From Burkholderiales bacterium (GTDB lineage: Bacteria > Pseudomonadota > Gammaproteobacteria > Burkholderiales > JACQAP01), in the NCBI GenBank assembly GCA_036394495.1, contig DASWEZ010000156.1, forward strand, positions 1 to 43,097: a stretch of 43,097 bases of DNA, read 5' to 3'. Positions 4,492 to 32,768 of this stretch are shown piece after piece. Positions within the stretch are counted from its first letter, which is position 1. Every line of letters begins with the position of its first letter. The notes below the pieces were generated by a model. It worked only from the letters and a program-made list of their open reading frames with translations, ran no database searches and had not been told where the DNA came from. Made by a program: the position numbers and the translations under genes.

Positions 4492-5577
4492 TTGGCTCGC
4501 AAACCCGCAAACCGCAAGAAGCTGTTCCGCTCCCGCCGCAAGACACCCGGCCTGCCCCCCGGTTCGCTGGTGTACACCGGCGATGGCAAATCGCTGACCC
4601 CCCGCGTCACCATGCTCGACTACGACGAGCACAGGGTTGTCGAGAAGGAACTCGTTCGGGTGGACGACTGCATCCCGTTCAAGGATGCCCAGACGGTCAC
4701 CTGGATCAATGTCGACAGCGCCACCCAACCCGGACTGCTGGAGAACTTCGGCCGGGTCATGGGTTTCCATGCGCTGATGCTGGAAGACATCCTCAACACC
4801 GACCAGCGGCCCAAGTTCGAGGACTACGGCAACTACATTTACATCGTCGTGAAGATGCTCGACTACGACGTGAAGAAGGGCGAGATCGAGATCGAACAGT
4901 TGTCGCTCATCCTCGGACCGAACTACGTGATTACGTTCCAGGAGCGCGCGGGGGATTTTTTCGATCCGCTGCGCGAACGCATACGCAAATCCCTTGGGCG
5001 CATACGCAAGCTGGGCACCGACTATCTCGCCTACGCGATACTCGACATCATCGTGGACCACTATTTCGTGGTGCTGGAAAAGCTGGGCGATAAAATCGAG
5101 CAACTCGAGGACATCGTGATCACCAATCCCGGGCAGGACACGGTGCGCGCCGTCCACGCTATCAAGCGCGAGATGATTTTCGTGCGCAAGTCAGTGTGGC
5201 CGCTACGCGAAGTGGTAACCAACCTGCAGCGTTCGGAGTCACCGCTCGTGCGCGAATCGAACGCGGCCTACTTCCGCGACCTGCACGATCACATCATGCA
5301 GGTCACCGACAGCGTGGACACGTTCCGGGACCTCTTGAACGGGATGCTCGATTCCTATTACTCGACCATCACCACGCGGACCAACAGCGTGGTAAAGGTC
5401 CTGACACTTTTTTCCGCGATTTTCATGCCGCTGATGTTCATAACCGGCATTTTCGGCATGAACTTCCGGAATTTTCCCGAACTGGAGTGGCACTACGGCT
5501 TCCAGGGTTCGCTGATCCTGATGGTGGTGGTCACGATCATCATGGTCGCCATTTTCAAATGGAAGAAATGGCTCTAG
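4492..5577 (+). CDS. corA: Magnesium/cobalt transporter CorA
   Basis: Frame of ORF 4390..5577. It resembles Thermotoga-type CorA end to end (GLPPGSLVYTG near the N-terminus, GMN motif as GIFGMNF, two C-terminal TM helices, KWKKWL end). There is no ATG before the conserved N-terminus, and 4390-4478 overlaps marR. I therefore place the start at in-frame TTG 4492, with GGAG 6 nt upstream. Confidence 0.9.
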   Translation: MARKPANRKKLFRSRRKTPGLPPGSLVYTGDGKSLTPRVTMLDYDEHRVVEKELVRVDDCIPFKDAQTVTWINVDSATQPGLLENFGRVMGFHALMLEDILNTDQRPKFEDYGNYIYIVVKMLDYDVKKGEIEIEQLSLILGPNYVITFQERAGDFFDPLRERIRKSLGRIRKLGTDYLAYAILDIIVDHYFVVLEKLGDKIEQLEDIVITNPGQDTVRAVHAIKREMIFVRKSVWPLREVVTNLQRSESPLVRESNAAYFRDLHDHIMQVTDSVDTFRDLLNGMLDSYYSTITTRTNSVVKVLTLFSAIFMPLMFITGIFGMNFRNFPELEWHYGFQGSLILMVVVTIIMVAIFKWKKWL

Positions 5578-5862
5578 GGAAGCTCTGATCAAGTCTTGCG
5601 ACGCGCGTTGCGTCAGGTGCGGATGGATGGGAAGCGCCGCGACGAAGCCAAGGTGGGTACCTTAGCCAGGAGCGCAACAATGCAGACGCCGCACCTGACA
5701 CAACCCGATAATCGCTCGTCTGTTTAGAAGGGACCGGGGTGATTTGGGCCGATGGCTGCTTGGGCTCCTCCTTGTGTAGACCGGCTACACGGCGTCCTCG
5801 CCCTCTTGCCCCAGGCCCAAATCACCCCGGTCGCGCACGTAAGACTTGTTCAGAGCTTCCCT
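5576..5862 (+). other. Nested palindrome / candidate structured RNA in the corA 3-prime region (class unknown)
   Basis: Outer helix 5576-5600 / 5838-5862 (25 positions, 1 mismatch, 1 G-T). Inner hairpin 1: 5607-5622 / 5689-5704 (16 bp, 1 mismatch, 66-nt loop). Inner hairpin 2: 5732-5750 / 5814-5832 (19 bp perfect, 63-nt loop). It starts inside the corA TAG stop codon. No credible ORF. Confidence 0.5.
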
Positions 5863-5892
5863 GGGGCAGTAAACCGGGAGAAAGTCTGGCTG

Positions 5893-5915
5893 CCGGGCTT
5901 CGTCCCCGGTTTTTT
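5893..5915 (+). terminator. Rho-independent terminator candidate
   Basis: CCGGG (5893-5897), loop CTTCGTC, CCCGG (5905-5909), then TTTTTT (5910-5915). Short stem. It lies between corA plus its structured region and the convergent arfB. Confidence 0.5.
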
Positions 5916-5954
5916 GTCGCCGTTTCGAGGGATGCCGGTTCCGGATCTTCCCAA

Positions 5955-6365
5955 TCACTCCGTATCGGAGACCCGTCCGCGCCCGCGTTTCAACGTCGAA
6001 CGCGTTCGTTTTCCCGCAATGCGGCGTTCCTTCGACGCCCGCGTCGGACGCGTCGCGACGCGCTTCTTCGGCTTTTCCGCCGCAGCACGCAATAATTCCG
6101 TCAGCCGTCCCAGCGCATCGCGCCGATTCGCTTCCTGCGTGCGAAAACGCCCGGCATCGATTACCAGGATGTCCTGGAGGCTGACCCGCCGGCCGCCGAG
6201 CCGGCGCAGCCGCGCCTTGACGTCCTCGGGAAGCGATGGGCTCGCACCGATGTCGAAGCGCAGTTCCACCGCGGTGGAAACCTTGTTGACGTTCTGCCCG
6301 CCCGGTCCTGAAGCACGGACATGCCGGAACTCCAATTCTGCTTCGGGTATTGGGAAATGACGCAA
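5955..6365 (-). CDS. arfB: Alternative ribosome-rescue factor ArfB (GGQ peptidyl-tRNA hydrolase)
   Basis: 136 aa: RASGPGGQNVNKVSTAVELRFD (GGQ motif) plus a basic C-terminal tail (RPTRASKERRIAGKRTRSTLKRGRGR), as in E. coli YaeJ/ArfB. The start codon is TTG 6365, with AAGGAG 7 nt upstream. Confidence 0.9.
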   Translation of the reverse strand: MRHFPIPEAELEFRHVRASGPGGQNVNKVSTAVELRFDIGASPSLPEDVKARLRRLGGRRVSLQDILVIDAGRFRTQEANRRDALGRLTELLRAAAEKPKKRVATRPTRASKERRIAGKRTRSTLKRGRGRVSDTE

Positions 6366-27072: not shown

Positions 27073-27243
27073 AATTCATTTTTGCCGCCAAGACGCCAAG
27101 AACGCCAAGGGGGTCGGAAAAGAATGATTGAAATTACGAACGGTGGTTGGTAGTAAAAATGCTGCGTATATCGACCATATTGTCACCATATTTTTTGCTT
27201 TTCTTGGCGCTCTTGGCGCCTTGGCGGCGAAATCTTCTTTAAA
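27073..27243. repeat. Palindromic intergenic element, copy C1
   Basis: Left arm 27084-27109 GCCGCCAAGACGCCAAGAACGCCAAG; right arm 27203-27228 CTTGGCGCTCTTGGCGCCTTGGCGGC; 24/26 paired. It starts 2 nt after the hyi stop. Confidence 0.85.
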
Positions 27244-27407
27244 AATTCATTTTTGCCGCCAAGACGCCAAGAGCGCCAAGGGGGTCGGAAAAGGATGATT
27301 GAAATTACGAACGGTGGTTGGTAGTAAAAATGTTGCGTGTATCGACCATATCGTCACCGTATTTTTTTGTTTTTCTTGGCGCTCTTGGCGCCTTGGCGGC
27401 GAAATCT
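27244..27407. repeat. Palindromic intergenic element, copy C2 (tandem duplicate of C1)
   Basis: Left arm 27255-27280, right arm 27375-27400; 25/26 paired. Offset from C1 is 171-172 bp, with about 8 substitutions and one 1-nt indel between the copies. Confidence 0.85.
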
Positions 27408-27430: not shown

Positions 27431-28312
27431 ATGAACGTAGGATTTATCGGGCTGGGCATCATGGGGAAACCCATGGTCGCCAACCTCATCAAGGGTGGTC
27501 ATACGCTGTTCCTGGCGAGTCGCAGCGGCGTACCACAGGAACTGACCGCCGCGGGCGGGAAAGCGTGCGCATCGGCAAAGGAAGTCGCGCAGAAAGCCGA
27601 CATAATCATCACCATGGTGCCGGACACCCCTGACGTCGAGAAGGTGTTGTTCGGCAAGGACGGCGTCGCCGAAGGGTTGTCATCGGGCAAAATCGTCGTC
27701 GACATGAGTTCGATCTCGCCGATCGAGACCAAGGCCTTCGCCGGGCGCATCAAGAAGTCCGGCGCCGATTACGTGGATGCACCCGTCTCCGGCGGCGAAG
27801 TCGGCGCCAGGAACGCGGCACTCACCATCATGGTCGGCGCTTCCGAAGCGGCATTCGCCAAAGTGAAACCCTTGTTCGAGCTGATGGGCAAGAACATCAC
27901 GCTGGTCGGAGACGTCGGCGCCGGTCAGATATGCAAGGTTTGCAACCAGATCATCGTTGCGTTGAACATCGAAGCCGTCGGCGAAGCGCTGCTGCTTGCC
28001 TCCAAGGCCGGCGTCGATCCGGGCAAGGTGCGTACGGCCCTCATGGGGGGATTTGCCTCGTCGCGCGTGCTCGAAGTGCACGGTGAACGCATGGTCAAGC
28101 GCACTTTCGATCCCGGCTTCCGCATCGAGCTGCACCAGAAGGACCTGAACCTGGCCCTGTCCTCGGCGCGCGCGCTGAAGATGAGCCTGCCAAACACCGC
28201 GACCGCGCAGGAATTGTTCAGCGCCTGCCAGGCCCAGGGCGGCGGCAAGTGGGACCACTCCGCCATGGTCAAAGCCCTCGAAGCCCTCGCCAATCACCAG
28301 GTCGCCAAGTAA
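27431..28312 (+). CDS. glxR: 2-hydroxy-3-oxopropionate (tartronate semialdehyde) reductase
   Basis: 293 aa. GFIGLGIMG NAD motif and the 3-hydroxyisobutyrate-dehydrogenase-family core (DAPVSGG, GAGQICKVCNQ). Context is downstream of hyi. Confidence 0.85.
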   Translation: MNVGFIGLGIMGKPMVANLIKGGHTLFLASRSGVPQELTAAGGKACASAKEVAQKADIIITMVPDTPDVEKVLFGKDGVAEGLSSGKIVVDMSSISPIETKAFAGRIKKSGADYVDAPVSGGEVGARNAALTIMVGASEAAFAKVKPLFELMGKNITLVGDVGAGQICKVCNQIIVALNIEAVGEALLLASKAGVDPGKVRTALMGGFASSRVLEVHGERMVKRTFDPGFRIELHQKDLNLALSSARALKMSLPNTATAQELFSACQAQGGGKWDHSAMVKALEALANHQVAK

Positions 28313-28324
28313 AAAACTGCATTT

Positions 28325-28483
28325 GCCACAGAGGACACAGAGAACTGCAAAGACCAGAACCTACATGAACGTGAACGCCACAACTTTATCGGGTATCGAT
28401 TTTTCAGCTGCTGCGAACGGAACTTCTAACTCTCGAGCAATGATTCATATCCCGCCGTGGGTTTCCTCTGTGACCTCTGTGGC
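28325..28483. repeat. Palindromic intergenic element, copy D
   Basis: Left arm 28325-28342 GCCACAGAGGACACAGAG; right arm 28466-28483 CTCTGTGACCTCTGTGGC; 17/18 paired, with a single A-A mismatch at arm position 11. Confidence 0.8.
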
Positions 28484-28498
28484 TAAAAAGGTATTTTT

Positions 28499-31278: not shown

Positions 31279-31289
31279 TGCAATACCCT

Positions 31290-31485
31290 GAACCACGGAG
31301 GACACGGAGGACACGGAGGAAAAACAAAACAAGGAAAAGAAAATTTGAGTTTGGAACATGGCCTGTTTGTAAACCTGTACCTCCAATTTTCGCCGCCACG
31401 GATCATCAAGCAATGAAAGGCTTTTAACCCCGGCATTTCTATTGTACTTGCCTTTCCTCCGTGTCCTCCGTGTCCTCCGTGGTTC
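31290..31485. repeat. Palindromic intergenic element, copy E (perfect 33-bp arms)
   Basis: 31290-31322 GAACCACGGAGGACACGGAGGACACGGAGGAAA is the exact reverse complement of 31453-31485. 130-bp A/T-rich core. Confidence 0.9.
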
Positions 31486-31496
31486 ATTCTTTCCTG

Positions 31497-32549: not shown

Positions 32550-32561
32550 ATCTAATTCTTC

Positions 32562-32737
32562 ACCGCAAAGGCGCAAAGACGCAAAGGGAACGCAAAGAAA
32601 ATCGGTGCCGAAGGAATGAACAAATCTCGCCAGCCCCAGATCGCACATAATTGCCCAAATGCATCGTCAAGTTTGCAATTCTCACATTTATGGTTGTTTT
32701 CCTTTGCGTTCCCTTTGCGCCTTTGCGCCTCTGCGGT
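32562..32737. repeat. Palindromic intergenic element, copy F
   Basis: Left arm 32562-32601 ACCGCAAAGGCGCAAAGACGCAAAGGGAACGCAAAGAAAA. Right arm 32697-32737 TTTTCCTTTGCGTTCCCTTTGCGCCTTTGCGCCTCTGCGGT. About 38 pairs, 2 mismatches, 1 bulge. Confidence 0.85.
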
Positions 32738-32768
32738 TAATTTTGGTTGTTTTGGTTGGTTGCCTTAG

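Follow-up and report, generated by a model that had tools for sequence, protein, structure and literature searches.

A palindrome fused to the corA stop codon is most probably a copy of an IS5-type MITE

The long palindrome at the 3′ end of corA in this Burkholderiales bacterium is, with a probability that we put at about 90%, one copy of a multi-copy, non-coding IS5-type MITE that inserted at a CTAG tetranucleotide, and is a selfish element rather than a corA-specific RNA. It lies in contig DASWEZ010000156.1, the 43,097 nucleotides of which are referred to here as the window. This reading is carried by the multi-copy dispersal of the sequence, its sharp ends, its target duplication, the empty sites of relatives, and an insertion sequence (IS) in a congener that combines matching TIRs with an intact transposase. 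In the mechanism we propose, an IS5-type DDE transposase acting in trans would recognise TIRs of 17–23 bp, and the element would insert at YTAR tetranucleotides, mostly CTAG, duplicating 4 bp. The copy studied here would have inserted where the last codons of corA (...CTC TAG) create a CTAG, with the left duplication restoring the stop codon and leaving CorA unchanged, and the element would now separate the corA stop from an older terminator at 5892–5915. The three-helix shape would then be of the element's own design, in which the TIRs give the outer helix and two internal modules give the inner hairpins; it does not reflect corA regulation.

The gene corA, which encodes a CorA-like Mg2+ transporter (4492–5577, plus strand; PF01544, 240.5 bits, E 3e-71), ends in a TAG at 5575–5577, and is convergent with an arfB-like gene that carries an RF-1 domain (5955–6365, minus strand; PF00472, 73.8 bits). 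Both genes are present in the ORF list. The architecture that the initial annotation had described between them was recovered. The outer helix, which starts within the corA TAG, pairs 5576–5600 with 5838–5862; it contains a single mismatch (T5589/T5849) and a single G-T pair (G5598/T5840), and a repeat finder extended this inverted repeat to 5571–5600/5838–5867 (30 nt, 87%). Inside it, the 16-bp stem of hairpin 1 (5607–5622/5689–5704) forms part of a 19-nt, 89% inverted repeat at 5604–5622/5689–5707, and the stem of hairpin 2 (5732–5750/5814–5832) is 19 nt long and 100% complementary. A terminator-like stem followed by T6 is present downstream, at 5892–5915. The two hairpin loops also contain the mutually complementary motifs that had been proposed, although the first of them, AGGAGCGCAA, sits at 5668–5677, one base away from the 5669–5678 originally given; the second, TTGGGCTCCT, lies at 5760–5769. 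When the RNA of 5565–5920 was folded, the predicted energy was −194.1 kcal/mol, compared with −138.7 ± 5.6 kcal/mol for dinucleotide shuffles (z = −9.95), and none of 100 such shuffles was as stable. A structure of −194 kcal/mol fused to a stop codon could readily pass for a riboswitch-like 3′ UTR or an sRNA, and it is of value for annotation that this one is, in all probability, a transposon copy.

The element itself spans 5578–5860 on the plus strand (283 bp), and was classed as a non-autonomous member of the IS5 group on the basis of copies in the same genome and in congeners, together with the absence of an Rfam match and of a conserved ORF. When copies were aligned with their flanks, similarity began exactly at GGAAGCTCTGATCAAGTCTTGCG and stopped exactly at the inverted complement ...GAGCTTCC, giving sharp ends of the form GGAAGC.../...GCTTCC. 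These ends are 23-bp TIRs (GGAAGCTCTGATCAAGT...), the left at 5578–5600 (plus strand, GGAAGCTCTGATCAAGTCTTGCG) and the right at 5838–5860 (minus strand, where it reads GGAAGCTCTGAACAAGTCTTACG), which are complementary at 21 of 23 positions in the corA copy. Across three subfamilies the TIRs are conserved and co-vary between the two ends, as is to be expected since both ends must fit one transposase. On the left, the target-site duplication CTAG (5574–5577) holds the corA TAG and corresponds to the empty site of relatives, GGCTCTAG followed by GGC. Its counterpart on the right (5861–5864) has decayed to CTGG through one A>G change, and downstream of it the empty site known from relatives resumes (GGCAGTAAACC...). 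That the outer helix begins within the corA TAG is explained by its composition, the TIR plus part of this palindromic CTAG duplication. Between the TIRs lie the hairpin 1 module (HP1; 5604–5707, plus strand) and the hairpin 2 module (HP2; 5732–5832, plus strand). The element is short and non-coding, overlapped only by chance ORFs of 43–48 codons. A 15-codon ORF preceded by AGGAG-N8-ATG in hairpin 1 was considered separately; its start is ACG in other subfamilies and it is not conserved, and we treat it as a chance occurrence.

A search of the assembly from which the window comes (G000; 2.96 Mb in 314 contigs, a 79.8% complete draft) with positions 5571–5867 as the query returned five full-length copies and two truncated at contig ends, the corA copy included. 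The initial annotation had held that many dispersed identical copies would mark a plain MITE. Dispersed copies are indeed numerous, but they are not identical: the five full-length copies share 92–96% identity with one another. It had also offered a nested insertion of small palindromic elements as an explanation. The mobile nature of the sequence is supported, but not the nesting, since the 283-bp unit would move as a whole, with its own TIRs and duplication, rather than as three separate insertions at this locus. Of the 24 same-genus genomes that were searched, 8 contained diverged members of the family, with up to about 21 matches in one of these (G023), and further diverged members were present in G223 and G179, which belong to different families of the order. 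CTAG joined to the TIR occurs in at least 119 stretches from many uncultured Burkholderiales, Gammaproteobacteria and Acidobacteriaceae MAGs. The inner hairpins were not found outside MITE copies in the bacterium's own genome; elsewhere in the order they were. A metagenome scan for the exact corA junction, as a filled or an empty allele, gave no matches. One match in another genome (G001), examined as a possible end of a full IS, proved to be a lone 48-bp truncated relic with no transposase nearby.

Target sites were read from the flanks of 40 family elements, made up of 25 copies of about 283 bp from five genomes and 15 size variants. Outside the copy ends, almost every copy in the G000 assembly has CTAG, or a one-base variant of it, on both sides. 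Flanking 4-mers were identical in half of the 40 elements (17 CTAG, 3 TTAA), and most of the others differed by one base. It could be argued that the family is instead an IS630/Tc1-like element that ends in GGGAAG...CTTCCC and duplicates only the TA inside CTAG, given that CTAG/CTAG flanks cannot separate a 4-bp from a TA duplication, and that differing flanks vary more at their outer positions (CTAG/CTAA, TTAG/CTAG). This seems very unlikely to us: the three TTAA/TTAA elements require that 4 bp, not only TA, were duplicated, the autonomous element with matching TIRs encodes an IS5-family rather than an IS630-family transposase, and the TIR resembles that of E. coli IS5. It may be recorded here that half of all flank pairs consist of non-identical 4-mers, with the variation mostly at the outer positions; we assume that these decayed after insertion.

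The state of the locus before insertion can be read from relatives. When the two flanks were joined, leaving out the element and one of the 4-mers, and the genus was searched with this query, the corA and arfB flanks gave one continuous match of 776–801 bp at 72–88% identity, with a single CTAG, in at least ten same-genus genomes. In the seven relatives inspected at base level, the empty site reads ...TGGCTCTAG, without the element, or ...TGGTTATAG in the case of G010. Directly before the spacer, six of these seven have ...AAATGGCTCTAG, and G010 has ...AAATGGTTATAG. The clearest juxtaposition is with G021, where CTAG runs straight into GGC..., as opposed to CTAG, element, CTGG and then GGC... 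in the genome studied here. The locus between corA and arfB is polymorphic for the insertion between species. In two element-free relatives, G041 and G021, the same hairpin and T run stand directly 3′ of the corA stop, which identifies the terminator-like hairpin with T6 at 5892–5915 (plus strand) as the native corA terminator, displaced 287 bp downstream.

These empty sites bear directly on the reading that the initial annotation had preferred, namely a structured 3′ UTR or 3′-derived sRNA of corA, which would be linked to Mg2+ homeostasis. Only two features speak for such an RNA, its location directly behind the corA stop and its strong predicted fold. It is contradicted by the absence of the sequence from the corA–arfB spacer of at least ten congeners, by the at least seven copies in the genome and the many further ones in relatives, by the fact that the same sequence adjoins stop-terminated long open frames on other contigs, and by the possession of TIRs and a target duplication. 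We consider it extremely improbable. The statement that the structure matches no known RNA class held up: a sensitive cmscan of 5300–6200 against Rfam, with E-values allowed up to 10, returned no family match, only chance-level hits to miRNA and lncRNA models, of which the best inside the element (E = 1.7) was far below threshold.

The preferred reading, insertion of an IS5-type MITE, also accounts for the position of the element at a stop codon. CTAG is about 11-fold depleted in the G000 assembly (61% GC), with 962 occurrences observed against some 10,400 expected from base composition, and at 34% of these sites the TAG is the stop of an open frame of 150 codons or more. Each of the six G000 copies whose flank could be assessed adjoins a stop of this kind. 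As the 4-bp duplication recreates CTAG, neither the stop codon nor the protein is altered, so that insertions at CTAG stop codons are tolerated; given this tolerance and the choice of target, fusion to a stop codon emerges as a property of the family. The CTAG/stop-codon target logic provides a simple rule by which to recognise this family, whose members occur widely among uncultured Burkholderiales and outside them.

A candidate partner was found in a congener. In G002, a 1,175-bp IS (G002:C52:777-1951) is flanked by CTAG on both sides, has the TIRs GGAAGCTCTGCGCAAGTG and GGAAACTCTGAACAAGTC, and encodes an intact transposase of 321 amino acids. This protein scores 329 bits against the IS5-family model NF033581, for which the cut-off is 140, and also matches PF01609 (DDE_Tnp_1; 80.5 bits) and PF05598 (DUF772; 77.8 bits). 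Annotated IS5-family transposases on plasmids share only about 54% identity with it. A second, frameshifted copy of this IS, 1,174 bp in length, is present in G013 (G013:C344:2555-3728). The first 17–18 nt of the left TIR of the MITE are common to both, and its right TIR matches the right end of the G002 IS (GGAAACTCTGAACAAGTC) at 17 of 18 bases. Scans for the TIR pattern gave 20–67 matches in four of the five congeners scanned and 11 in G002, compared with 0–1 for a reversed control; in two cases, a pair of TIRs spaced about 1.17 kb apart has a DDE_Tnp_1 match between them. In E. coli IS5A (NC_000913), the ends read GGAAGGTGCGAATAAG and GGAAGGTGCGAACAAGTCC, and the second of these agrees with the right TIR of the MITE at 13 of its first 16 positions. 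From these data we infer that the element is mobilised in trans by an IS5-type transposase. An IS5-type transposase was found neither in the 79.8% complete G000 assembly, which was searched with PF01609 and with the G002 transposase, nor in the MITE-rich G023, G011 and G005, which are fragmented or incomplete MAGs. IS copies are often lost during the assembly of fragmented MAGs. The idea that the MITE is a deletion derivative of the partner IS was discarded, as BLASTN found only the 17–18-bp TIRs to be shared, and nothing internal.

Among described elements, the closest to the corA MITE is MITEPsy1 of Pseudomonas syringae pv. phaseolicola, which has the TIR GGAAGGTCTGAAAAAGCC and a 4-nt duplication of CTAG or YTAA, and which was trapped while transposing and attributed to an IS5-family IS, ISPsy2 (PMC3189936). 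The two have in common that they are non-coding and multi-copy, with IS5-like TIRs (GGAAGGTCTGAAAAAGCC there, GGAAGCTCTGATCAAGTC here) and a 4-nt duplication of the CTAG/YTAA type. They differ in that MITEPsy1 is 100 nt long, lacks an elaborate interior and comes from P. syringae, with its transposition caught directly, whereas the element described here is 283 bp long, contains two hairpins of about 100 nt and resides in uncultured Burkholderiales, with its mobility deduced from comparison. Like E. coli IS5 and the IS5 group, it has a TIR that starts with GGAAG and a YTAR target with a 4-bp duplication; unlike IS5, it encodes no transposase, and its TIRs are all that it has in common with the TIR-matched IS. 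REP and REPIN sequences are extragenic palindromes of 20–40 bp that often lie just after stop codons, lack TIRs and target duplications, and are moved by RAYT transposases of the Y1 (HUH) type. The corA element resembles these as an extragenic palindromic repeat just after a stop codon, but differs from them in its DDE-type TIRs and 4-bp duplication. Correia elements duplicate TA. Both the Correia elements of Neisseria and the ERIC elements of enterobacteria are small palindromic repeats that are often co-transcribed and form long hairpins that RNases can cut (PMC10969869). The corA element is likewise a small palindromic repeat with long predicted hairpins, but its TIRs, targets and size are different. 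The corA element belongs to a common type of selfish repeat.

The element lacks a U-tract, and the sole terminator-like site is found downstream of it; corA transcription would thus probably run through the element and make it part of the 3′ UTR. This raises the question of whether the MITE was exapted, an idea compatible with its transposon origin: helices co-transcribed with corA might be cut by RNase III, or might alter mRNA stability or 3′-end formation, effects for which Correia and ERIC elements provide the precedent. The element is indeed placed between the stop codon and that terminator-like site, the fold predicted for its RNA is of extreme stability (−194 kcal/mol, z = −9.95), and processing by RNase III and RNase E has been documented for other MITE-containing transcripts (PMC10969869). 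Mutations in individual copies, however, just break pairs, leaving no visible selection on structure at single loci, and relatives manage corA without the element. Exaptation at corA is for these reasons unlikely in our judgement, and a selfish insertion without a dedicated role at this gene is the best-supported reading.

The interior of the element has a history of its own. A consensus fold of 24 aligned copies retained all three helices. Both partners had changed in ten pairs, of which the TIR helix and the inner hairpins contribute five each, and in HP2 the G000 subfamily is set apart from the remaining aligned copies by two compensatory pairs. Among copies of one subfamily, single mutations leave individual copies with broken pairs, which indicates neutral decay after insertion. 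Over longer distances the structure of HP1 is kept. Across five lineages, at 71–76% identity and with the conserved loop motifs GCTAGGCGTCGC and CAAGGAGCGCAACGACGC, 95.4% of its cells are paired, compared with 83.8% in shuffles and 25–42% with slid partners, and 9 of 24 pairs have changed on both sides. An interior made up of junk alone would have no use for these compensatory changes, so that some constraint or mutational bias must act on the inner hairpins. HP1 predates the TIR set of the corA copy: it also occurs in a second family (f12, in G035 and G105), where it lies between the different TIRs AGCGGATTT...AATGTACGG, flanked by YTAR.

Two explanations remain for the compensatory pairing of HP1, a constraint on the hairpin or the symmetry-restoring mutation typical of quasi-palindromes. 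The latter is supported by one copy, C191, in which clustered changes, all within about 10 nt, have turned the inner HP1 into a perfect palindrome (−68.9 kcal/mol, compared with −40 to −51 kcal/mol in its sisters); this seems a clear case of quasi-palindrome correction. Size variants in G023, ranging from 54 to 668 bp, keep their TIRs while additional structured DNA is present in two places, the HP1 loop, at the CTAG inside it, and the HP2 loop, and the interior is therefore plastic. A modular history of the element is plausible, because HP1 is found between other TIRs and longer variants hold additional DNA in their hairpin loops.

It follows a different logic to suppose that the inner hairpins, and HP1 above all, are functional modules, whether as RNA, as a DNA hairpin or as a site for a protein or host factor that aids propagation, carried as cargo by several MITE backbones. 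HP1 is recognisable in five lineages, including the f12 MITEs with their unrelated TIRs (AGCGGATTT...), and the conserved loop motifs and preserved pairing described above would fit a function. Were this so, with HP1 functional on at least two MITE backbones and in several Burkholderiales families, the interior would be functional cargo and not filler. We nevertheless think it quite improbable, as palindromic DNA can regain symmetry by template switching without selection, a case of which is seen in C191, as no Rfam family was matched, and as the interior is highly plastic among size variants. Internal hairpins are also not known to be required for DDE transposition by IS5/IS4-type transposases.

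For transposon biologists, the interest of the family may lie in the persistence of the HP1 module under different TIRs and in the quasi-palindrome case of C191. Set against otherwise familiar features, HP1 under different TIRs and the compensatory changes of the inner hairpins make up a single, mildly unusual trait of the element. In the f12 family, HP1 is accompanied by a second hairpin in which, as judged by eye, HP1-like motifs occur in the opposite orientation.

Size variants of the IS5-type MITE that adjoins the corA stop codon were found at loci L193-L207 in four genomes of the same genus (G023, G005, G011 and G013), with the terminal inverted repeats (TIRs) kept and lengths of 54, 242, 260, 407-410, 532-553 and 663-668 bp. 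The 54-bp form consists of the two TIRs only. The additional structured DNA (128-256 bp) enters at two fixed points, one being the CTAG inside the loop of hairpin 1 and the other the loop of hairpin 2. In two genomes from another family of Burkholderiales (G035 and G105; L190-L192, L223 and L232), we observed a MITE of 162-285 bp whose TIRs differ (AGCGGATTTCATATGAATGTACGGTGTC); it is likewise flanked by YTAR and contains a homologue of hairpin 1. By eye, its longer forms carry a second hairpin in which hairpin-1-like motifs lie in the opposite orientation.

One copy in the window's own draft assembly (L004, G000:C191:6164-6445) bears clustered changes in hairpin 1, GCGACGAAGCC to -CTCCTGGCC, through which the inner part of the hairpin becomes a perfect 15-bp palindrome. 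The fold energy is then -68.9 kcal/mol, compared with -40 to -51 kcal/mol in sister copies, and the cluster looks like a template-switch correction of a quasi-palindrome. Within hairpin 1, window 5668-5727 holds AGGAG, an 8-nt gap and an ATG that opens a 15-codon ORF (MQTPHLTQPDNRSSV). Since this ATG reads ACG in the G023-type subfamilies, the ORF is probably there by chance.

Across the whole G000 genome, CTAG is ~11-fold under-represented (962 observed, ~10,400 expected); CTAA, TTAG and TTAA are similarly rare at 821-1,043 each, and GATC occurs 21,897 times.

The window holds a second class of palindromic element, at 1063-1211, 27203-27404, 28311-28497, 31289-31486 and 32559-32740, with arms that are arrays of 7-9-nt units (for example, CACGGAGGA x3 or GCAAAGRC repeats). 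The IS5-type TIR is not related to these palindromes, which probably correspond to those labelled A-F in the initial annotation. Short unit arrays also lie directly 3' of the corA stop in two congeners, GCGGAAT x4 in G006 (L064) and GGGACGA-like units in G018 (L062), at the position homologous to the MITE insertion site; the corA-arfB spacer seems to be a collector of several kinds of repeat.
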